A stretch of 30,766 nucleotides of DNA from a virus (lineage: Duplodnaviria > Heunggongvirae > Uroviricota > Caudoviricetes). Location of the stretch: IMG/VR virus record IMGVR_UViG_2537561688_000008, one strand, 5' to 3'. The position numbers were made by a program, and so were the translations under genes. Positions 805-30,766 of the stretch are shown one piece after another; position 1 is the first letter of the stretch; each line of letters opens with the position of its first letter. The notes under the pieces were generated by a model. It had not been told where the DNA came from. It saw only the letters and a program-made list of their open reading frames with translations, and made no database searches.

Positions 805-3021
805 CTAAGCGGTAACGTTCTCCTCTTCTAGTTCGTCCATCATTTTTAAATAATGCATTTCGTCACCAGTAGCTGAAAATATTGTTCTCAATTGTTTTAG
901 GTATTTATCTGGGTCTATGTCGCCCATATCAGTAATATTTACCGCATCAGAGTGAGAACCTCTGTTAATGTATCTGTAGAATGCTTTGAAATCACTGTTG
1001 CTATCGTCGCGTGCCAACTTTGTTAATTCATCTTGTAGAGCATCTGTTCTATGAACAAATGCAAAATAATATTCTAGTATGTTTCTCATAATATTAGGTA
1101 TTATGATTTTGTTTGCTTTGCCATCTTTTGCATCTTTTAATATTTGCCACAAAGATTGATATTCATTCTGTATGCTGTTTTTTTGTATTTCAGTAATTAT
1201 ACTAAAATCATTTTTCGTTACTCTACCTAGATAATAGTTTTTCTTAAATAGTTTGTCTTCTCTGCTTTTAGGAGATAGCTTAATAAGTTCATGAAAGAAA
1301 TAAAGATTGTGAGTAAGGATTAATACCTTCTTTGTTAATTCATTTTTTATAATGTGGTGATGAATAATTGATGCGATGTCGTAGACATAGTTTTGCGATA
1401 GACTAGATATTGGATCGTCAATAACAATAAAAATATCCCTGCTATCGGTATCATTTTTATCGGTTTTACCTTTACAGCACTCTAAAAAATAAAGAAACGT
1501 TATTAGTGTTTTTTCACCTTCGCTAAGAGATCTATAAACATTTTGGTTTTTTGTATGCCCTGGTCGAGATATAATGTACATATCTTTTCTTTCTGCATGT
1601 TTTTCAATACAAAAACCAGAGATCCCTAGATTTTTTAAATGGGTGTTTATTGAGTCTATCGTAGAATCAATGTTAGATATTTTATCTCGCAATGCTTTTA
1701 TTGTGAGATTATTTTCTTTTCCTTGTTGCTCAATATTATTTAATTCATCATGAACTTTCTTTTTGATATCAAAGAATTTTTCTTTGTGTTTGGATAAATT
1801 CTCTAAATCATCGCTGCAAAAAGCATGGAGAGCCCCCCAAACTTGTTTTCCGATTTTATTCTCATACTCTTTGAGTTTTTTAACCTTATCATTTATGTCT
1901 CTTATTTTTTTGTTAACAGCGTCTATGCTTTCCTGAACATGATTTTCTAGTTCTTTATCAATTTCTAATGTAACGCATGTTGATGGATTGTTGATCTTAT
2001 CAATAATGTTTATTAAATTTTTTTCTGCAATGTTTTGCAATATTTTAATATTGGAAATAATGATCTCTTTATCTTTCTCATTGATTAGTGCACATGATGA
2101 TATATTGTTTTGTATTTCGTTAAAATGATATATGGTATTTTTCTCATAAACTGACTTTATATCTGAGAGCTGTTTTACTTTCTTTGAATAACTTTCGTCA
2201 AATATTGATTTAAGGGCATTTAAAAATTCGCGACTAATAGTTTTTTCCTGACAAAACGGACATGTAGAACCGTCTAAATAATGTTCTTTACCTTTTTTTA
2301 CCCAGTCAAGATTATGAAGTTTATTAATGGTTTCTGATAAATAGCTATTGCTTGTATCTATTATAGGTGTTGCTAATGTATTTACATCATCAATTGATGG
2401 GGTATATGGGTGTAAAGGAGTTATTAATGCGGTTTCATTGTTTCTATTTTCTAATAGTATAGAGTATTCTTTTGCTATATCATTTAAATTAATAAAGGTG
2501 ATTGGTGAGGATGATTTTATCATCTCAAAAAAAGGTCTTTTATAGCCAACTTTACCTTTCATTAAGATTTTTAGTACAGAGTTTCTGATTGGTTCTGTTT
2601 TTTTCCAGATCGATTCGATGTATTCATTTTCTTTTTTTTCCATTTCTGCTTCTAATTTCAATAACACTCCTTTTTTTTGTCTATATTGCTCTGTAAGTTG
2701 CTGTTTAATTGCTTCTTTTTTAATTAATTGTTTTTCAATATCTGCATTTTCTTTACTTAATGTAAAAACACCTTTTTGTTCCTGTGCATTGTAGAAATTA
2801 TCTTCAATAAATTTAGTGTTGTAAACAAGAGGTTTGTAATTGTCAAGAAGGGTACATTCACACTCGTTATAATCTGTGTGTGTAGAGTCGTAGAAATAAT
2901 TTGAAATGGTAGATTTGCCACAACCATTTTGGCCGTATAGTATGTTTACTCTTTTTTCAAGATTCAGTATTGTGAAGGCGTCTTTCTTATAACTGGTAAC
3001 ATTTTTTAATCTAAGTTCCAT
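805..3021 (-). CDS. ABC-type ATPase with coiled-coil insert and C-terminal putative nuclease domain; RloC/PrrC-like candidate anti-phage protein (cargo island 1)
   Basis: Intact 738-aa ORF. Walker A GQNGCGKST near the N-terminus; ABC-signature-like LSEGEK, Walker B-like IFIVIDDP and H-loop-like LILTHN about 480 aa later; K/E-rich heptad-like stretches in between; CPFC motif mid-insert; C-terminal R-x3-E (RNILE) and R-x6-H (RYINRGSH). Visibly AT-rich compared with the flanking phage genes. GAGG lies 7 nt upstream of the ATG on the minus strand. Confidence 0.6.
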   Translation of the reverse strand: MELRLKNVTSYKKDAFTILNLEKRVNILYGQNGCGKSTISNYFYDSTHTDYNECECTLLDNYKPLVYNTKFIEDNFYNAQEQKGVFTLSKENADIEKQLIKKEAIKQQLTEQYRQKKGVLLKLEAEMEKKENEYIESIWKKTEPIRNSVLKILMKGKVGYKRPFFEMIKSSSPITFINLNDIAKEYSILLENRNNETALITPLHPYTPSIDDVNTLATPIIDTSNSYLSETINKLHNLDWVKKGKEHYLDGSTCPFCQEKTISREFLNALKSIFDESYSKKVKQLSDIKSVYEKNTIYHFNEIQNNISSCALINEKDKEIIISNIKILQNIAEKNLINIIDKINNPSTCVTLEIDKELENHVQESIDAVNKKIRDINDKVKKLKEYENKIGKQVWGALHAFCSDDLENLSKHKEKFFDIKKKVHDELNNIEQQGKENNLTIKALRDKISNIDSTIDSINTHLKNLGISGFCIEKHAERKDMYIISRPGHTKNQNVYRSLSEGEKTLITFLYFLECCKGKTDKNDTDSRDIFIVIDDPISSLSQNYVYDIASIIHHHIIKNELTKKVLILTHNLYFFHELIKLSPKSREDKLFKKNYYLGRVTKNDFSIITEIQKNSIQNEYQSLWQILKDAKDGKANKIIIPNIMRNILEYYFAFVHRTDALQDELTKLARDDSNSDFKAFYRYINRGSHSDAVNITDMGDIDPDKYLKQLRTIFSATGDEMHYLKMMDELEEENVTA

Positions 3022-3336
3022 TTTTATGCCTCATACGATAAAGCTTTTATTGTATGTAAAAAAGCAGCTTAATATAGCCACTTAGTGGTAAAGATCTACC
3101 TTAAGACTTTGATATGTGCAAGAGGCATATAACGTAAGTGTTCGTTGAGCCAAATGTGTTTACGCTATGACGAGTTGGTCGTTTTTTGACAATCCTGTAG
3201 GAGCTATAGATAGGCGTATATTAAGTGCGTGTTTTTGCATGTGTCAGATACTATTCTTTTTGTCAGTTTCGGTCAGTGCTGATGTGATTTCAGTTTCATC
3301 ATGCAACTGCATTAAAACCGCCCCATGAAGCGGGCG

Positions 3337-3355
3337 GGCGAGGCGGGGAAAGCAC
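3337..3355. other. cos: P2-type cos site (19-nt cohesive end)
   Basis: The sequence GGCGAGGCGGGGAAAGCAC, which I recall as the P2 cohesive end, sits about 170 bp upstream of the portal gene Q, the expected position in a P2 genome. Confidence 0.55.
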
Positions 3356-3524
3356 TGCGCGCTGGCGGTGGTGCTGATTTTATTTTTTCAGCGTCTGAGC
3401 GCGTCGTGATGGCGTTTAGATTGTTCGCCGGGGCGTTGGTGTGTCTGCGGGATGTTTTGTGCGGTGGTGAGCGTGTGAGGGCGTGATGACAGGGTGTAAA
3501 AAAGCCGCCCGCAGGCGGCGATGT

Positions 3525-4559
3525 TCAGCCGTTGTCAGGGTCCAGTGAGTAGTTTTTAAAGCGGATGACCTCCTGACCGAGCCAGCCGTTTATCTCGCGG
3601 ATCCTGTCCTGTAACGGGATAAGTTCATTGCGGACAAAGACCTTTGCCACTTTCTCAATATCACCCAGCGACCCGACGTTCTCCGGCTTGCCACCCATCA
3701 ACTGAAAGGGGATGCGGTGCGCGTCCAGCAGGTCAGCGGCGCTGGCTTTTTTGATATTAAAAAAATCGTCCTTCGTCGCCACTTCACTGAGGGGGATAAT
3801 TTTAATGCCGTCGGCTTTCCCCTGTGGGGCATAGAGAAACAGGTTTTTAAAGTTGTTGCGGCCTTTCGACTTGACCATGTTTTCGCGAAGCATTTCGATA
3901 TCGTTGCGGTCCTGCACGGCATCGGTGACGTACATGATGTATCCGGCATGTGCGCCGTTTTCGTAATACTTGCGGCGGAACAGCGTGGCCGACTCATTCA
4001 GCCAGGCAGAGTTAAGGGCGCTGAGATATTCCGGCAGACCGTACAGCTCCTGATTAATATCCGGCTCCAGCAGGTGAAACACGGAGCCGGGCGCGAAAGG
4101 TGTCGGCTCGTTGAAGGACGGCACCCACCAGTAAACATCCTCTTCCACGCCACGGCGGGTATATTTTGCCGGTGAGGTTTCCAGTCTGATGACCTTACCG
4201 GTGGTGCTGTATCGCTTTTCCAGAAACGCATTACCGAACACCAGAAAGTCCAGCACAAAGCGGCTGAAATTCTGCTGTGAAAGCCACGGATGCGGGATAA
4301 ATGTCGAGGCCAGAATATTGCGTTTAACGTAAATCGGTGAGCTGTGATGCACGGCAGCACGCAGGCTTTTTGCCAGACCGGTAAAGCTGACCGGTGGCTC
4401 ATACCATCTGCCGTTACTGATGCACTCGACGTAATCCAGAATGTCACGGCGGTCGAGTACCGGCACCGGCTCACCAAAGGTGAATGCCTCCATTTTCGGG
4501 GCGCTGGCGGTCATTGTTTTTGCCGCAGGTTGCGGTGTTTTCCCTTTTTTCTTGCTCAT
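3525..4559 (-). CDS. Q: portal protein (P2 gpQ-like)
   Basis: 344-aa ORF starting MSKKKGKTPQPAAKTMTAS, same length as P2 gpQ; divergent from O and adjacent to P as in P2. Confidence 0.9.
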   Translation of the reverse strand: MSKKKGKTPQPAAKTMTASAPKMEAFTFGEPVPVLDRRDILDYVECISNGRWYEPPVSFTGLAKSLRAAVHHSSPIYVKRNILASTFIPHPWLSQQNFSRFVLDFLVFGNAFLEKRYSTTGKVIRLETSPAKYTRRGVEEDVYWWVPSFNEPTPFAPGSVFHLLEPDINQELYGLPEYLSALNSAWLNESATLFRRKYYENGAHAGYIMYVTDAVQDRNDIEMLRENMVKSKGRNNFKNLFLYAPQGKADGIKIIPLSEVATKDDFFNIKKASAADLLDAHRIPFQLMGGKPENVGSLGDIEKVAKVFVRNELIPLQDRIREINGWLGQEVIRFKNYSLDPDNG

Positions 4560-23757: not shown

Positions 23758-26197
23758 CAATGTAAAATTACAGGTATTGCTCAGGGCTGTTGACCAGGCA
23801 TCCCGCCCGTTTAAATCCATCCGCACAGCGAGCAAATCGCTGTCGGGGGATATCCGGGAAACACAAAAATCACTGCGCGAGCTGAACGGTCACGCATCCC
23901 GTATTGAGGGATTTCGCAAGACCAGTGCACAGCTCGCCGTGACTGGTCATGCACTTGAAAAGGCACGGCAGGAGGCCGAAGCCCTTGCCACACAGTTTAA
24001 AAACACCGAACGTCCGACACGTGCTCAGGCGAAAGTGCTGGAATCCGCGAAGCGTGCGGCGGAGGACTTACAGGCGAAATATAACCGCCTGACGGATTCC
24101 GTTAAACGCCAGCAGCGGGAACTGGCCGTTGTGGGAATTAATACCCGCAATCTTGCACATGATGAGCAGGGGCTGAAAAACCGTATCAGTGAAACCACCG
24201 CACAGCTTAACCGTCAGCGCGACGCACTGGCGCGTGTCAGTGCACAACAGGCAAAACTTAACGCAGTCAAACAGCGTTATCAGGCCGGAAAGGAACTGGC
24301 CGGAAATATGGCCTCAGTGGGCGCTGCCGGTGTGGGGATTGCTGCTGCGGGAACGATGGTCGGTGTTAAGCTGCTGATGCCCGGTTATGAGTTTGCGCAG
24401 AAAAACTCAGAATTGCAGGCCGTGCTCGGTGTGGCAAAAGACTCCGCCGAAATGGCCGCGCTCCGCAAGCAGGCGCGCCAGCTCGGCGACAATACCGCAG
24501 CCTCGGCAGATGATGCAGCCGGTGCTCAGATTATTATTGCGAAAGCCGGTGGGGATGTTGATGCCATTCAGGCGGCAACGCCGGTCACGTTGAACATGGC
24601 GCTGGCGAACCGTCGCACGATGGAAGAAAACGCCGCCCTGCTGATGGGGATGAAATCCGCCTTTCAGCTTTCAAACGATAAGGTCGCTCATATCGGGGAT
24701 GTTCTCTCCATGACGATGAACAAAACCGCCGCCGATTTTGACGGCATGAGCGATGCGCTGACCTATGCCGCACCTGTGGCAAAAAATGCCGGTGTCAGCA
24801 TTGAAGAAACCGCCGCAATGGTCGGGGCGCTGCATGATGCAAAAATCACAGGCTCAATGGCGGGGACGGGAAGCCGTGCCGTGTTAAGCCGCCTGCAGGC
24901 ACCGACGGGAAAAGCATGGGATGCACTCAAAGAGCTTGGAGTGAAAACCTCAGACAGCAAGGGAAACACCCGGCCAATATTTACCATTCTGAAAGAAATG
25001 CAGGCCAGTTTTGAGAAAAACCGGCTCGGTACTGCCCAGCAGGCTGAATACATGAAAACCATTTTCGGGGAGGAGGCCAGCTCAGCCGCCGCTGTGCTGA
25101 TGACTGCCGCCTCAACCGGAAAGCTGGACAAACTGACCGCTGCGTTTAAAGCCTCAGACGGGAAGACCGCAGAGCTGGTAAATATCATGCAGGACAACCT
25201 CGGCGGTGACTTTAAGGAGTTTCAGTCCGCTTATGAGGCGGTGGGGACTGACCTGTTTGACCAGCAGGAAGGCGCACTGCGTAATCTCACGCAGACGGCC
25301 ACAAAGTATGTGTTAAAACTCGACGGCTGGATCCAGAAAAACAAATCACTGGCGTCAACCATCGGCATCATTGTCGGTGGTGCACTGGCACTGATTGGTG
25401 TCATCGGTGCCATTGGCCTCGTAGCCTGGCCGGTTATCACCGGCATCAATGCCATCATCGCGGCAGCAGGCGCAATGGGGGCAGTCTTCACGACGGTTGG
25501 CAGTGCTGTTATGACCGCCATCGGGGCGATTAGCTGGCCGGTTGTGGCCGTGGTGGCCGCCATTGTCGCCGGGGCGTTGCTTATCCGTAAATACTGGGAG
25601 CCTGTCAGCGCATTCTTTGGCGGTGTGGTGGAAGGGCTGAAAGCGGCATTTGCGCCGGTGGGGGAACTATTCACGCCACTTAAGCTGGTGTTCGACTGGC
25701 TGGGCGAAAAGTTACAGGCCGCGTGGCAGTGGTTTAAAAACCTGATTGCCCCGGTCAAAGCCACCCAGGACACCCTGAACCGTTGCCGTGACACGGGCGT
25801 CATGTTCGGGCAGGCACTGGCTGACGCGCTGATGCTGCCGCTTAATGCGTTCAACAAACTGCGCAGTGGTATTGACTGGGTACTGGAAAAACTCGGCGTC
25901 ATCAACAAAGAGTCAGGCACGCTTGACCAGACCGCCGCCAGAACTCATGCCGCCACGTATGGCACCGGTGGTTATATTCCGGCGACCAGCTCTTATGCAG
26001 GTTATCAGGCTTATCAGCCGGTCACGGCACCGGCTGGCCGCTCTTATGTAGACCAGAGTAAAAACGAATATCACATCAGCCTGACGGGTGGTACTGCGCC
26101 GGGGACACAGCTCGACCGCCAGTTACAGGATGCACTCGAAAAATACGAGCGGGATAAACGTGCGCGCGCCCGTGCCAGCATGATGCATGACGGTTAA
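23750..26197 (+). CDS. T: tail tape measure protein (P2 gpT-like)
   Basis: 815-aa ORF with a coiled-coil N-terminus and Gly/Ala-rich hydrophobic segments; correct position. Confidence 0.9.
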   Translation: MSNNVKLQVLLRAVDQASRPFKSIRTASKSLSGDIRETQKSLRELNGHASRIEGFRKTSAQLAVTGHALEKARQEAEALATQFKNTERPTRAQAKVLESAKRAAEDLQAKYNRLTDSVKRQQRELAVVGINTRNLAHDEQGLKNRISETTAQLNRQRDALARVSAQQAKLNAVKQRYQAGKELAGNMASVGAAGVGIAAAGTMVGVKLLMPGYEFAQKNSELQAVLGVAKDSAEMAALRKQARQLGDNTAASADDAAGAQIIIAKAGGDVDAIQAATPVTLNMALANRRTMEENAALLMGMKSAFQLSNDKVAHIGDVLSMTMNKTAADFDGMSDALTYAAPVAKNAGVSIEETAAMVGALHDAKITGSMAGTGSRAVLSRLQAPTGKAWDALKELGVKTSDSKGNTRPIFTILKEMQASFEKNRLGTAQQAEYMKTIFGEEASSAAAVLMTAASTGKLDKLTAAFKASDGKTAELVNIMQDNLGGDFKEFQSAYEAVGTDLFDQQEGALRNLTQTATKYVLKLDGWIQKNKSLASTIGIIVGGALALIGVIGAIGLVAWPVITGINAIIAAAGAMGAVFTTVGSAVMTAIGAISWPVVAVVAAIVAGALLIRKYWEPVSAFFGGVVEGLKAAFAPVGELFTPLKLVFDWLGEKLQAAWQWFKNLIAPVKATQDTLNRCRDTGVMFGQALADALMLPLNAFNKLRSGIDWVLEKLGVINKESGTLDQTAARTHAATYGTGGYIPATSSYAGYQAYQPVTAPAGRSYVDQSKNEYHISLTGGTAPGTQLDRQLQDALEKYERDKRARARASMMHDG

Positions 26198-26211
26198 GGA
26201 GGTGACGAAAA

Positions 26212-26691
26212 ATGATGCTCGCGTTAGGTATGTTTGTTTTTATGCGCCAGACGCTGCCACACCAGACCATGCAGCGTGAATCAGATTATCGCTGGCCGTC
26301 AAATTCCCGTATCGGTAAACGGGACGCTTTTCAGTTTCTCGGTGTGGGTGAGGAAAACATCACGCTTGCCGGTGTGCTTTATCCCGAACTGACCGGCGGC
26401 AAGCTGACGATGACCACGCTCAGGCTGATGGCAGAGGAGGGGCGGGCGTGGCCGTTGCTGGATGGCACCGGCATGATTTACGGCATGTATGTCATCAGCA
26501 GGGTGAGTGAAACAGGGAGTATTTTCTTTGCAGACGGCACACCCCGGAAAATTGATTTTACGCTGTCGCTTACCCGCGTTGATGAATCACTGGCCGCGCT
26601 TTATGGCGATATCGGTAAACAGGCGGAATCGCTCATCGGTAAGGCTGGCAGTATGGCGACTAAATTCACGGGTATGACGGGGGCGGGATAA
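26212..26691 (+). CDS. U: tail protein (P2 gpU-like)
   Basis: 159-aa ORF after T. Confidence 0.85.
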   Translation: MMLALGMFVFMRQTLPHQTMQRESDYRWPSNSRIGKRDAFQFLGVGEENITLAGVLYPELTGGKLTMTTLRLMAEEGRAWPLLDGTGMIYGMYVISRVSETGSIFFADGTPRKIDFTLSLTRVDESLAALYGDIGKQAESLIGKAGSMATKFTGMTGAG

Positions 26692-27854
26692 TGCTGGATG
26701 CACTGACATTTGATGCAGGCAGTACGCTGACGCCGGATTACATGCTGATGCTCGACAGCAGGGATATTACCGGCAATATCAGCGACCGTCTGATGAGCAT
26801 GACCCTGACGGATAACCGGGGCTTTGAGGCTGACCAGCTTGATATTGAACTGAACGATGCCGACGGGCAGGTCGGGCTGCCGATTCGTGGCGCTGTCCTG
26901 ACGGTGTATATCGGCTGGAAAGGTTTTGCCCTGGTATGCAAAGGGAAATTTACCGTTGATGAGGTTGAACACCGGGGCGCGCCGGATGTGGTTACCATCC
27001 GCGCCCGGAGTGCAGATTTCCGCGGGACGCTTAATTCCCGCCGGGAAGGCTCCTGGCATGACACCACACTCGGTGCGATTGTTGAGGCGATAGCCTGTCG
27101 TAACAAGCTGGAAGCCAGTGTCGCTCCGTCACTGGCCGGAATTAAAATCCCGCACATCGACCAGTCGCAGGAGTCTGATGCGAAATTCCTGATCCGTCTT
27201 GCTGAACGCAACGGCGGTGAGGTGTCGGTAAAAATGGGAAAACTGTTGTTTCTTAAGGCGGGGCAGGGGGTGACGGCCAGTGGTAAAAAAATCCCGCAGA
27301 TTACCATCACCCGCAGCGACGGCGACCGTCATCATTTTGCGATTGCTGACCGTGGAGCCTACACCGGTGTAACGGCAAAATGGCTACACACCAAAGACCC
27401 GAAGCCTCAAAAGCAGAAGGTAAAACTGAAACGCAAAAAGAAAGAGAAACACCTGCGCGCACTGGAGCACCCGAAAGCGAAACCGGTCAGGCAGAAGAAA
27501 GCGCCTAAAGTACCGGAAGCGCGTGAAGGTGAATACATGGCCGGTGAGGCTGACAACGTTTTTGCCCTGACCACGGTATATGCCACGAAAGCACAGGCCA
27601 TGCGTGCCGCTCAGGCGAAGTGGGATAAGCTGCAACGGGGTGTAGCGGAGTTCTCCATCAGCCTGGCTACTGGTCGGGCAGATATTTACACGGAAACACC
27701 GGTTAAAGTGTCAGGCTTTAAGCGCGTCATAGACGAGCAGGACTGGACAATCACTAAGGTGACACATTTTCTGAATAACAGCGGCTTCACGACGTCCCTG
27801 GAGCTTGAGGTCAGGCTTTCTGATGTGAAGTACGAAACAGAAGATGATGAGTGA
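26691..27854 (+). CDS. D: tail protein (P2 gpD-like)
   Basis: 387-aa ORF overlapping the U stop. Confidence 0.85.
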   Translation: MLDALTFDAGSTLTPDYMLMLDSRDITGNISDRLMSMTLTDNRGFEADQLDIELNDADGQVGLPIRGAVLTVYIGWKGFALVCKGKFTVDEVEHRGAPDVVTIRARSADFRGTLNSRREGSWHDTTLGAIVEAIACRNKLEASVAPSLAGIKIPHIDQSQESDAKFLIRLAERNGGEVSVKMGKLLFLKAGQGVTASGKKIPQITITRSDGDRHHFAIADRGAYTGVTAKWLHTKDPKPQKQKVKLKRKKKEKHLRALEHPKAKPVRQKKAPKVPEAREGEYMAGEADNVFALTTVYATKAQAMRAAQAKWDKLQRGVAEFSISLATGRADIYTETPVKVSGFKRVIDEQDWTITKVTHFLNNSGFTTSLELEVRLSDVKYETEDDE

Positions 27855-27935
27855 TGTTTTTATTTTATCTGTTTGTTTTATAAGGTTAAATTAACTAAAA
27901 TGGCACCATCAACAAAACCGGAAGAGGTGCTCGCG

Positions 27936-28153
27936 ATGTTTCATTGTCCTTTATGCCAGCATGCCGCACATGCGCGTACAAGTCGCTATATCACTGACAC
28001 GACAAAAGAGCGTTATCACCAGTGCAGAACGTGAATTGCAGCGCCACGTTCATCACTTATGAGTCGGTACAGCGATACATCGTGAAGCCGGGAGAAGTCC
28101 ACGCTGTAAGACCGCACCCGTTGCCGTCAGGGCAGCAAATTATGTGGATGTGA
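27936..28153 (+). pseudogene. ogr: late transcription activator Ogr (zinc-finger), frameshifted
   Basis: ATG at 27936 with GAAGAGG upstream encodes MFHCPLCQHAAHARTSRYITDTTKERYHQC, then stops after two more codons (28032-28034). The remainder (...NVNCSATFITYESVQRYIVKPGEVHAVRPHPLPSGQQIMWM) continues in the +1 frame to 28153. Confidence 0.65.
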
Positions 28154-28163
28154 TCACAAAAAT

Positions 28164-28190
28164 AGCCCCTCAGTTAAGGGGCTTTATTTA
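28164..28190 (+). terminator. Rho-independent terminator downstream of ogr
   Basis: AGCCCCT-cagtta-AGGGGCT stem-loop followed by ttattta. Confidence 0.5.
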
Positions 28191-28281
28191 TGGTCGATGT
28201 GGACGCTATGTGGACAGTGCTTGATATAAATCCATTTATATCATCAGGTTAGGTGCTTTTTTGTGACACCATCCCTGTCTT

Positions 28282-28309
28282 CCCCCACATGATGTGGGGT
28301 TTTTTTTTA
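28282..28309 (+). terminator. Strong rho-independent terminator upstream of fieF
   Basis: Near-perfect palindrome cccccacatgatgtgggg followed by nine T. It lies in host or junction DNA and may terminate either prophage read-through or the upstream host gene. Confidence 0.6.
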
Positions 28310-28389
28310 TCCTCAATTTGCCTGCTGCTTAATGCATTGCAGATGATTTGCTTCCGTTATACTAGCGTCAGTTGATAGCGGGAGTATTT

Positions 28390-29292
28390 ATGAATCAATC
28401 TTATGGACGGCTGGTCAGTTGGGCGGCGATTGCTGCGACGGCGATGGCTTCGTTGCTATTGCTGATTAAAATTTTTGCATGGTGGTATACCGGGTCGGTG
28501 AGTATTCTCGCCGCGCTGGTGGATTCGCTGGTGGATATCGGCGCGTCGTTGACGAATTTATTGGTGGTGCGATATTCCCTGCAACCTGCCGACGATAATC
28601 ACTCGTTTGGTCACGGTAAAGCTGAGTCCCTCGCGGCGCTGGCGCAAAGTATGTTTATCTCCGGTTCGGCACTATTCCTGTTTTTGACGGGTATTCAACA
28701 TCTGATATCTCCAACACCGATGACAGATCCAGGCGTCGGGGTTATCGTGACAATTGTGGCGCTAATTTGTACGATTATCCTTGTCTCGTTTCAGCGTTGG
28801 GTGGTGAGGCGGACGCAAAGCCAGGCGGTGCGGGCTGATATGCTACATTACCAGTCTGATGTTATGATGAACGGCGCAATTCTGCTGGCGCTGGGGTTGT
28901 CCTGGTACGGCTGGCATCGCGCCGATGCTCTGTTTGCATTGGGAATCGGCATCTATATTTTATATAGCGCGTTACGCATGGGATATGAGGCGGTACAGTC
29001 ATTACTGGATCGCGCATTGCCTGATGAGGAACGGCAAGAAATTATTGATATCGTGACTTCCTGGCCGGGTGTTAGCGGCGCTCACGATCTTCGCACGCGG
29101 CAGTCAGGGCCGACCCGCTTTATTCAGATTCATTTGGAAATGGAAGACTCTCTGCCTTTGGTTCAGGCACATATGGTGGCGGATCAGGTAGAGCAGGCTA
29201 TTTTACGGCGTTTTCCGGGATCGGATGTAATTATCCATCAGGACCCCTGTTCCGTCGTACCCAGGGAGGGTAAACGGTCTATGCTTTCATAA
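28390..29292 (+). CDS. fieF: cation-efflux (CDF family) ferrous iron / zinc transporter FieF (YiiP)
   Basis: Translation from the ATG at 28390 ([49 protein letters not shown]...) matches E. coli FieF as I recall it; track ORF 28372 starts a few codons earlier at TTG. Confidence 0.9.
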
Positions 29293-29472
29293 TCAGTATA
29301 AAAGAGAGCCAGACCCGCATTTTGTGTATAAAATACCGCCATTTGGCCTGACCTGAATCAATTCAGCAGGAAGTGATTGTTATACTATTTGCACATTCGT
29401 TGGATCACTTCGATGTGCAAGAAGACTTCCGGCAACAGATTTCATTTTGCATTCCAAAGTTCAGAGGTAGTC

Positions 29473-30435
29473 ATGATTAAGAAAATCGGTGTGTTGACAA
29501 GCGGCGGTGATGCGCCAGGCATGAACGCCGCAATTCGCGGGGTTGTTCGTTCTGCGCTGACAGAAGGTCTGGAAGTAATGGGTATTTATGACGGCTATCT
29601 GGGTCTGTATGAAGACCGTATGGTACAGCTAGACCGTTACAGCGTGTCTGACATGATCAACCGTGGCGGTACGTTCCTCGGTTCTGCGCGTTTCCCGGAA
29701 TTCCGCGACGAGAACATCCGCGCCGTGGCTATCGAAAACCTGAAAAAACGTGGTATCGACGCGCTGGTGGTTATCGGCGGTGACGGTTCCTACATGGGTG
29801 CAATGCGTCTGACCGAAATGGGCTTCCCGTGCATCGGTCTGCCGGGCACTATCGACAACGACATCAAAGGCACTGACTACACTATCGGTTTCTTCACTGC
29901 GCTGAGCACCGTTGTAGAAGCGATCGACCGTCTGCGTGACACCTCTTCTTCTCACCAGCGTATTTCCGTGGTGGAAGTGATGGGCCGTTATTGTGGCGAT
30001 CTGACCCTGGCTGCGGCCATTGCCGGTGGCTGTGAATTCGTTGTGGTTCCGGAAGTTGAATTCAGCCGTGAAGATCTGGTAAACGAAATCAAAGCGGGTA
30101 TCGCGAAAGGTAAAAAACACGCGATCGTGGCGATTACCGAACATATGTGTGATGTTGACGAACTGGCGCATTTCATCGAGAAAGAAACCGGTCGTGAAAC
30201 CCGCGCAACTGTGCTGGGCCACATCCAGCGCGGTGGTTCTCCGGTGCCTTACGACCGTATTCTGGCTTCCCGTATGGGCGCTTACGCTATCGATCTGCTG
30301 CTGGCAGGTTACGGCGGTCGTTGCGTAGGTATCCAGAACGAACAGCTGGTTCACCACGACATCATCGACGCTATCGAAAACATGAAGCGTCCGTTCAAAG
30401 GCGACTGGCTGGACTGCGCGAAAAAACTGTATTAA
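29473..30435 (+). CDS. pfkA: ATP-dependent 6-phosphofructokinase I
   Basis: [32 protein letters not shown]...[11 protein letters not shown], 320 aa, recognisable as E. coli PfkA. Start at the ATG at 29473 with GAGG upstream, not the upstream in-frame ATG of the track ORF. Confidence 0.95.
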
Positions 30436-30491
30436 TGATTTCGGAAAAAGGCAGATTCCTTTAGCCTGAAACCGATGACAGAAGCAAAAAT

Positions 30492-30766
<275 letters not shown>

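Follow-up and report, generated by a model that had tools for sequence, protein, structure and literature searches.

In the P2 family of phages, the integrase (Int) binds both arm and core sites of the attachment region and IHF bends the P arm, while excision is directed by Cox, whose binding sites are situated between core and P' arm. The attachment site of one P2-like phage, WPhi, is said to have been first described by Nilsson et al. in 2004. In MG1655, WPhi and L-413C map to a single coordinate, 4104392 of an older genome version, and the L-413C core is the same as that of WPhi (Nilsson et al. 2011, PMC3448106). Further occupants are recorded in the E. coli W genome, where the entry reads 'cpxP-fieF: Wphi1 (P2)' (PMC3032704), in a study of O157:H7, which reports a 31.4-kb prophage between cpxP and fieF (PMC7609406), and in a Salmonella Infantis preprint, in which the fieF-cpxP interval is split by 31.7 kb in the lysogen. 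The integration site considered here is this same published WPhi site between cpxP and fieF; it was already known.

A second group of described systems integrates at the 3' ends of RNA genes: phage 186 at a tRNA-Ile gene, Fels-2 and SopEPhi at ssrA, and P2-like prophages at rybB and cyaR. The small RNA CpxQ, to which the present site leads, was reportedly first described by Chao and Vogel in 2016. It is an approximately 60-nt, Hfq-dependent RNA that arises by RNase E cleavage from the cpxP 3' UTR, and it is more conserved than the remainder of cpxP (PMC9438474). In the literature examined, the WPhi-type site is described as intergenic and not as an RNA gene, and no paper connecting the CpxQ sRNA with the attachment site was found in the literature searched.

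The window, i.e. the whole stretch of 30,766 nucleotides that was analyzed, starts inside the prophage, approximately 3.5 kb from the portal gene, and attL, int and cox all lie outside it. Comparison with other genomes and phages makes it very probable that the interval 28154-28389 represents the attR junction of a prophage that is P2-like (Peduovirus) and shares its integration specificity with WPhi. In the prophage-free E. coli KL53, cpxP is located directly upstream of fieF, and the match between this allele and the window starts exactly at 28265: immediately before GACACC, KL53 reads CCTTGCCATA and the window reads GCTTTTTTGT. From the other side, similarity of the window to WPhi (AY135739) and to dozens of P2-like phages covers 27860-28311 and ends there. 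Past the shared TTTTATC, WPhi continues with AATCACTTACATCGG, which leads into its P' arm and int, and the window continues with CTCAATTTGCC, the region upstream of fieF. Since similarity to attB begins at 28265 and similarity to the WPhi attP ends at 28311, positions 28265-28311 constitute the core common to phage and host.

The same boundary is seen at the scale of the species. A query of positions 28154-28700 found matches in all 5426 complete E. coli genomes, most of which align only from query position 112, corresponding to window position 28265, and 790 of which also align across the phage side. From 28265 rightwards, the window was matched in 5426/5426 genomes, with the fieF flank collinear with that of prophage-free genomes. 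Furthermore, in the lysogen GPEC1222, attL lies between cpxP and the phage integrase, and consists of cpxP, CCTTGCCATA, the same core, and then AATCACTTACATCAG, which is the WPhi P' arm; a circular 32.3-kb P2-like element contributed a further attP with the same core. In this four-way comparison of attB (KL53), attL (the lysogen), attP (WPhi and the circular element) and attR (the window), the segment common to all is the 47-nt GACACCATCCCTGTCTTCCCCCACATGATGTGGGGGTTTTTTTTATC, which in the attR copy at 28265-28311 (plus strand) reads GACACCATCCCTGTCTTCCCCCACATGATGTGGGGTTTTTTTTTATC. The window core is identical to the WPhi attP at 46 of the 47 positions, the sole difference being a G to T change at 28300, and the KL53 attB core also differs from the window only by this change. 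In a survey of variants, the same base was present elsewhere in attP, attL and attR. The P arm differs from that of WPhi by one base over approximately 110 nt and the host location is the same; what sets the window apart from WPhi is that it shows attR only, carries the change at 28300, and has a frameshifted ogr. The WPhi site, reportedly a 47-nt core at 88.6 min, is consistent both with the core length of 47 nt found here and with the published MG1655 coordinate. Correcting 4104392 for the 1,977-bp difference in length between the two genome versions gives approximately 4106369, which falls within the core at 4106344-4106390.

To the right of the core, 28312-28389 (plus strand) is host-only sequence upstream of fieF, present as in prophage-free genomes by the KL53 alignment and divergent from the WPhi attP. 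The first host gene is fieF, encoding a CDF cation-efflux transporter (28390-29292, plus strand; ORF list and RefSeq annotation of matching genomes), and pfkA is next. Over 24000-30766, the best match among the E. coli genomes searched has 98.3% identity. For the annotation, the gain is a division into phage-only sequence up to 28264, a shared core at 28265-28311, and host-only sequence from 28312. An earlier note on this DNA had placed the right prophage boundary within 28154-28389, in the 240 bp or so upstream of fieF, and had expected the attR core in that interval. Both expectations are borne out by the junction at 28265-28311, and the ATG at 28390, given there as the start of fieF, agrees with the RefSeq annotation of an almost identical lysogen. 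No phage sequence extends beyond 28311, let alone past 28389, as the note had held it would if the boundary were wrong, and no junction was found elsewhere. The note was also right that a single junction is visible and that the site is not definable from the window alone, attL lying outside it; the comparison that it proposed, with a prophage-free allele and with attL beside the integrase, gave a clean four-way core when made on other genomes. It did not recognize the published WPhi site, the P arm as phage DNA, or the terminator as belonging to cpxP/CpxQ.

The phage half of the junction follows the layout of P2, whose record (NC_001895) has the order ogr, rho-independent terminator, Int P arm, IHF site, attP core, Cox sites and P' arm. 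The last phage gene in the window is ogr, the late-gene activator (27936-28153, plus strand; aligned with WPhi ogr and GPEC1222 ogrK). It is followed at 28164-28190 by the intrinsic terminator of ogr and the late F operon, which scores on both strands and was identified by terminator scan, folding and homology to P2. Its hairpin (28164-28183) precedes a T tract and folds at -13.2 kcal/mol (z = -3.2); across 27800-28450, the scan gave 4 terminator-like sites, compared with 0.6 expected from shuffles. The earlier note had ended the phage at this terminator, which proved too early: phage DNA continues for approximately 110 nt past the ogr stop codon before the core, and some 75 of these bases (28190-28264) beyond the terminator are the P arm.

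The arm-type binding region, assigned by homology, spans 28194-28221 (plus strand), where the alignment pairs the window with the protein_bind feature that is named 'Int P arm' in P2. The arm contains TGTGGACGCTATGTGGAC, with direct repeats of TGTGGAC at 28198-28204 and 28209-28215, 11 bp apart, a pair that occurs only once in the 30.8-kb window and is expected 0 times by chance. These repeats fit the P2-type integrase arm consensus, tgTGGaCa (PMC3448106). Adjacent to them, at about 28225-28256 (plus strand), is an A/T-rich segment that aligns with the 'IHF' protein_bind feature of NC_001895. The terminator, the tgTGGaCa-type arm repeats and the IHF site of P2 thus all have homologues in the window, in the same order, but the 27-nt P2 core faces a gap in the alignment. 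The core in the window is therefore not that of P2, as the earlier note had stated for the locI core, and with a core that is entirely different the chromosomal target differs as well. The architecture of the P arm is established by homology, with the Int and IHF sites themselves remaining putative, and the attR arm suggests that the prophage of the window encodes a WPhi-type integrase. A promoter scan of 27800-28450 found no plus-strand site; it thus lends no support to a promoter in the P arm, nor did it locate the promoter of fieF.

Whether this half-site still belongs to a working prophage is a separate question, and one raised by ogr itself. A deletion of one nucleotide between 28024 and 28025 (GTGCCAG in WPhi, GTGTCAG in GPEC1222, GTGCAG in the window) splits the 72-codon gene into two ORFs, 27873-28034 and 28022-28153. 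An exact 30-mer containing the deletion had 0 matches in IMG/VR, and the deletion may be specific to the strain or may be a sequencing error. Given the frameshift, the prophage may be defective; were the deletion real, late-gene activation should fail upon the loss of Ogr, whereas excision is independent of it. The interval could accordingly be read as the mere scar of a decayed prophage, with no working attR, no excision, and a boundary that has no present function. In addition to the ogr frameshift, the occurrence of 2-kb remnants (int, truncated C and ogr) at the same site in other E. coli is in keeping with decay, as is the position of this prophage's int and cox outside the window. On the other hand, the TGTGGAC repeats are exact, the P arm is one base from WPhi and the core one polymorphic base from the WPhi attP, and approximately 27 kb of upstream late genes are present with long ORFs, while excision in this family needs Int, Cox and IHF and not Ogr. 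We therefore regard a mere scar as unlikely, and retain the interpretation of the interval as the attR of a WPhi-type prophage.

Several other observations concern the content of prophages at this site. The remnant in E. coli P276M (NZ_CP044293.1 2483300-2488409) is 2 kb in length, lies between cpxP and fieF, and comprises attL, int, a truncated C repressor gene, ogrK and attR; its replication and morphogenesis genes are all deleted, and both att sites are intact. Eight hits (H101-H108), among them P276M (H102) and ECCWS199 (H101), have the same extent of match (query 2-111). ECCWS199 also resembles P276M in having ordinary host genes at the expected attL position of a full-length prophage, and this group may share the same 2-kb remnant; IAL7250 has more phage genes at that position. 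In the window, a 738-aa ORF (805-3021, minus strand) is situated beside the portal gene (3525-4559) in a region of variable cargo. It has a full-length match to Pfam AAA_13 (E = 7e-111), a match to the PADLOC candidate-defence family PDC-S06 (E = 5e-254), and a weaker C-terminal PrrC-like match, and from these similarities it is probably an anti-phage defence gene.

The host sequence captured by the core is not simply intergenic. In the RefSeq annotation of MG1655, the ncRNA gene cpxQ (b4716) occupies 4106330-4106387, a length of 58 nt that starts 10 nt past the cpxP stop codon and ends at the T run. It starts with TTTTCCTTGCCATA, to which the first 44 core nucleotides are joined, and the core is therefore equivalent to CpxQ nucleotides 15-58 plus ATC. 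The annotated 5' end is consistent both with the numbering of the CpxQ mutants C5G, C6G and U7A (10.1101/271551) and with the report that CpxQ begins with U and pairs with nhaB at U7 (PMC10250213). Window positions 28265-28308 match nucleotides 15-58 except for the hairpin loop base, which is A and in K-12 is C, and for G50U. The site that the phage literature calls intergenic is thus most of the regulatory RNA gene cpxQ.

Within this segment lies the intrinsic terminator of cpxP/CpxQ, a hairpin with T9 at 28283-28308 (plus strand), which was found by terminator scan and folding and has the same position in MG1655 cpxQ; the attR copy folds into the same shape with one base pair fewer. A second strong terminator had been noted here before, and it is indeed present (28283-28299 plus T9). 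It is not, however, a separate feature beyond the phage, since it is the host cpxP/CpxQ terminator and lies within the core that phage and host share.

The two ends of the prophage are consequently unequal with respect to cpxQ. At attR, the full 58-nt gene directly downstream of cpxP is not found, and only nucleotides 15-58 are present. Upstream of this fragment are the P arm and ogr, with no cpxP; phage P-arm sequence takes the place of CpxQ nucleotides 1-14, the verified 5' seed included, and the terminator is kept. In each attL examined, by contrast, TTTTCCTTGCCATA is followed by the core. As in GPEC1222, an attL with cpxP, core, P' arm and int was seen in the lysogens H9Ecoli, G6/7 and BS74R-D. 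As the phage carries nucleotides 15-58, attL regenerates the full cpxQ and attR retains the 3' fragment only; the core overlaps the 3' part of an RNA gene, and the complete gene is restored at attL. The intact cpxQ of this prophage's host should accordingly be at attL, outside the window. In this respect the site resembles those of the tRNA, tmRNA and sRNA integrators, which likewise bring along the 3' portion of a short and strongly conserved RNA gene and restore that gene at attL. [quoted passage not shown]

An Rfam search of the interval and of the empty allele returned no family at the gathering score and none on the cpxQ strand at a meaningful score. RF02628 (Hrs1), which matches the minus strand with 44.5 bits at the intact cpxQ locus and 28.8 bits at the attR fragment (gathering score 56.4), was rejected as a feature of the locus and treated instead as an antisense-oriented relative of CpxQ. 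Its matches are at 28242-28307 of the window and at 1472-1544 of the empty-allele locus L001, both on the minus strand. The reverse complement of the consensus of this family, named 'Hfq-regulated sRNA 1', is CpxQ-like (UUACCUUGCCA, then CCCUGUC, then the terminator), and RF02628 may represent a homologue of CpxQ whose model was built from the wrong strand.

The polymorphic loop of the terminator hairpin allows the strand exchange to be placed within the core. At 28292, K-12 has C (CACATGCTGTGGG), and the window, WPhi and most genomes have A; by a rough estimate from identity bins, C is carried by fewer than about 18% of E. coli genomes, K-12 included. In IMG/VR, the C allele occurs in four contigs, all of the attR type (4/4) and from two different P-arm families, and an attR(C) with identity over 111 nt was found in at least 25 E. 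coli genomes. In the four attR(C) genomes whose attL was read (H9Ecoli, G6/7, BS74R-D and the P276M remnant), the attL allele is A in 4/4, with three different P' arm sequences among them. A synthetic attL(C) query found no perfect match among the 802 genomes covering at least 80% of the attL query, while perfect matches exist for attL(A) in the same comparison. Similarly, a synthetic attP(C) query had no perfect match in phage records, the WPhi-like phages differing by exactly one mismatch, and attP(C) is absent from the core-bearing contigs of IMG/VR.

With A at attL and C at attR, C is the host allele and A the phage allele. As the C in attR is host-derived, position 28292 and everything to its right is derived from the host, and the exchange falls within the 27 nt from 28265 to 28291 (plus strand). 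The crossover thus probably took place before the hairpin loop, within the first 27 nt of the core and not in the terminator palindrome, a placement that rests on four verified attL/attR pairs together with the absence of perfect matches, and that assumes the C allele to have pre-existed in the hosts. The palindrome is disfavored as the center of the crossover because a marker within the overlap would be expected to segregate both ways.

From the window alone, a junction at 28311/28312 would be as good as any other in the core, with exchange at the right end of the core and the whole attR core copy, second terminator included, derived from the phage; up to 28311, a single base separates the WPhi attP from the window. 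This alternative is rather improbable in light of the segregation described above, in which attR of lysogens of C-allele hosts keeps C, attL carries the phage A, and neither attL(C) nor attP(C) is found, which assigns the attR sequence from the loop rightwards to the host. For the preferred exchange in the left 27 nt, one could speculate that the two arms of the inverted repeat GACA-CCATCCC-TGTC (28265-28279) are candidates for the core-type sites, with the 7 bp between them as the overlap. The same sequence is, by folding, the first hairpin of CpxQ. The variant at 28300 (GGGG+T9) was also considered as a crossover marker, but proved uninformative, as it occurs in attP, attL, attR and empty sites.

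Integration at this site could then proceed as follows. The phage attP would have the order ogr, terminator, P arm (with two Int arm sites and the IHF site), 47-nt core, P' arm and int, and would supply its own copy of the 3' part of cpxQ. A tyrosine integrase, with the help of IHF, would carry out the strand exchange within the core; the functions of Int, IHF and Cox are assigned here from knowledge of the family. This would yield an attL composed of cpxP, CpxQ nucleotides 1-14, core, P' arm and int, in which a complete cpxQ is rebuilt, and an attR composed of ogr, P arm, core and fieF, in which a terminator is retained ahead of fieF. The strategy would be the same gene-rebuilding one as is employed by phages in the 3' ends of tRNA and tmRNA genes, and cpxQ would stay intact at attL after integration. 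With the native region upstream of fieF and the terminator at 28283-28308 both kept, read-through from the late operon should be stopped twice before reaching fieF. In the unintegrated phage genome, the terminator in the core would provide a second stop behind that of ogr and the F operon, ahead of the convergent int.

It could instead be proposed that the copy of CpxQ nucleotides 15-58 in attR or attP is transcribed as well. Transcripts reading through from ogr and the late F operon would then stop at the CpxQ terminator, as a chimeric RNA that binds Hfq and either imitates CpxQ or competes with it. The copy does keep the terminator hairpin and U tail and is found 100 nt past a late operon with strong transcription; in addition, CpxQ is reported to have two conserved seed regions, of which one, at about nucleotides 5-7, is outside the core and the other could lie inside it. 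However, the upstream ogr terminator looks efficient, no plus-strand promoter-like site was found in the P arm, and the verified 5' seed (nucleotides 5-7) is missing from attR, and we consider such an RNA very improbable. Finally, the idea that the junction uses canonical P2 attachment specificity (locI, locH or another secondary site of P2) can be dismissed as virtually excluded, for although the tape measure, U, D, ogr, terminator, P-arm repeats and IHF site are all close to those of P2, the 27-nt core of NC_001895 is absent from the window and the core that is present matches the WPhi attP, with cpxP and fieF as host flanks.

The established view of P2-family integration is unchanged by these results. 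They refine it for this site with regard to the junction coordinates, the P arm, the identity of the cpxP/CpxQ terminator, the overlap with cpxQ, the 27-nt crossover interval, and the occupancy and host range of the site. A WPhi-type P arm is found beside fieF in 790 E. coli genomes, and a different P arm with TGTAGAC repeats is joined to the same core in a further 94, so that at least 884 of the 5426 complete genomes (16%) contain a P2-like prophage at the cpxP-fieF core. With about one in six genomes occupied, studies of CpxQ or the cpxP 3' UTR in natural isolates should check for a prophage.

Among species-representative genomes, an exact 35-nt core pattern was present at no fewer than 120 loci in at least 26 genera, which include Escherichia, Salmonella, Citrobacter, Klebsiella, Enterobacter and Kosakonia as well as Kluyvera, Erwinia, Pantoea, Serratia and Edwardsiella. 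Among the matches listed, the CpxQ 5' part is upstream of the core in 119 of 120, the exception (L110) being an attR; a full-length P2-type integrase, with 66-99% identity to WPhi Int, directly follows the core in at least 8 genera, and three more loci have integrase remnants after it. IMG/VR contains 94 viral contigs with the core (approximately 54 of the attR, 25 of the attL and 8 of the attP type), with at least six distinct P-arm families. Outside Escherichia and Salmonella, empty sites and attR read T8 then GCC, and attL reads T8 then ATCA, and the shared identity there thus stops exactly at the end of cpxQ. At the left, the shared core begins with CACC, or with GACACC in WPhi-type phages. 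By these alignments the universal core is the 42-nt CACCATCCCTGTCTTCCCCCACATGATGTGGGGGTTTTTTTT. That a core of 42-47 nt is invariant across at least 26 genera and used by at least six P-arm lineages is explained by the site being most of cpxQ. A far broader proposal would be that many P2-like lineages have converged on the hyper-conserved CpxQ 3' part as a pan-Enterobacterales landing pad, with lysogeny or induction modulating the Cpx envelope-stress response; this could operate through a chimeric Hfq-binding RNA or through convergent int transcription at attL, antisense into cpxQ. As a whole, we hold this proposal to be highly doubtful.

Some individual loci deserve mention. One P-arm family in IMG/VR (L130, L148, L168, L205 and L214) ends in GGTGTTTTCTGA before CACC, at which point the host has CCTGTTTTCCTTGCCATAGA; GGTGTTTTCTGA resembles the host sequence with the CpxQ 5' seed deleted, and may be a relic of an ancestral homology between attP and cpxQ that extended further. 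In Citrobacter portucalensis (L029, ~3000-4306), a 1.2-kb insert separates the CpxQ terminator from fieF, diverging from the empty Citrobacter site only after T8-GCCCAAAATT, and similar right flanks are seen at L047, L129 and L186. It has two opposite-strand ORFs, one of 187 aa with an HEMMH motif and the other encoding a 119-aa putative lipoprotein, and may be a different small element that is inserted at the same spot with a longer core. Lastly, two GTDB representatives labelled Enterobacter hormaechei (L061 and L062; CP169086.1 and CP170191.1) are identical to E. coli at cpxP-fieF, with 100% identity in FieF, and a record labelled Escherichia coli (L079; CP178308.1, ECDA1023) has Kluyvera-type sequence at this locus; all three records are likely to be mislabelled.
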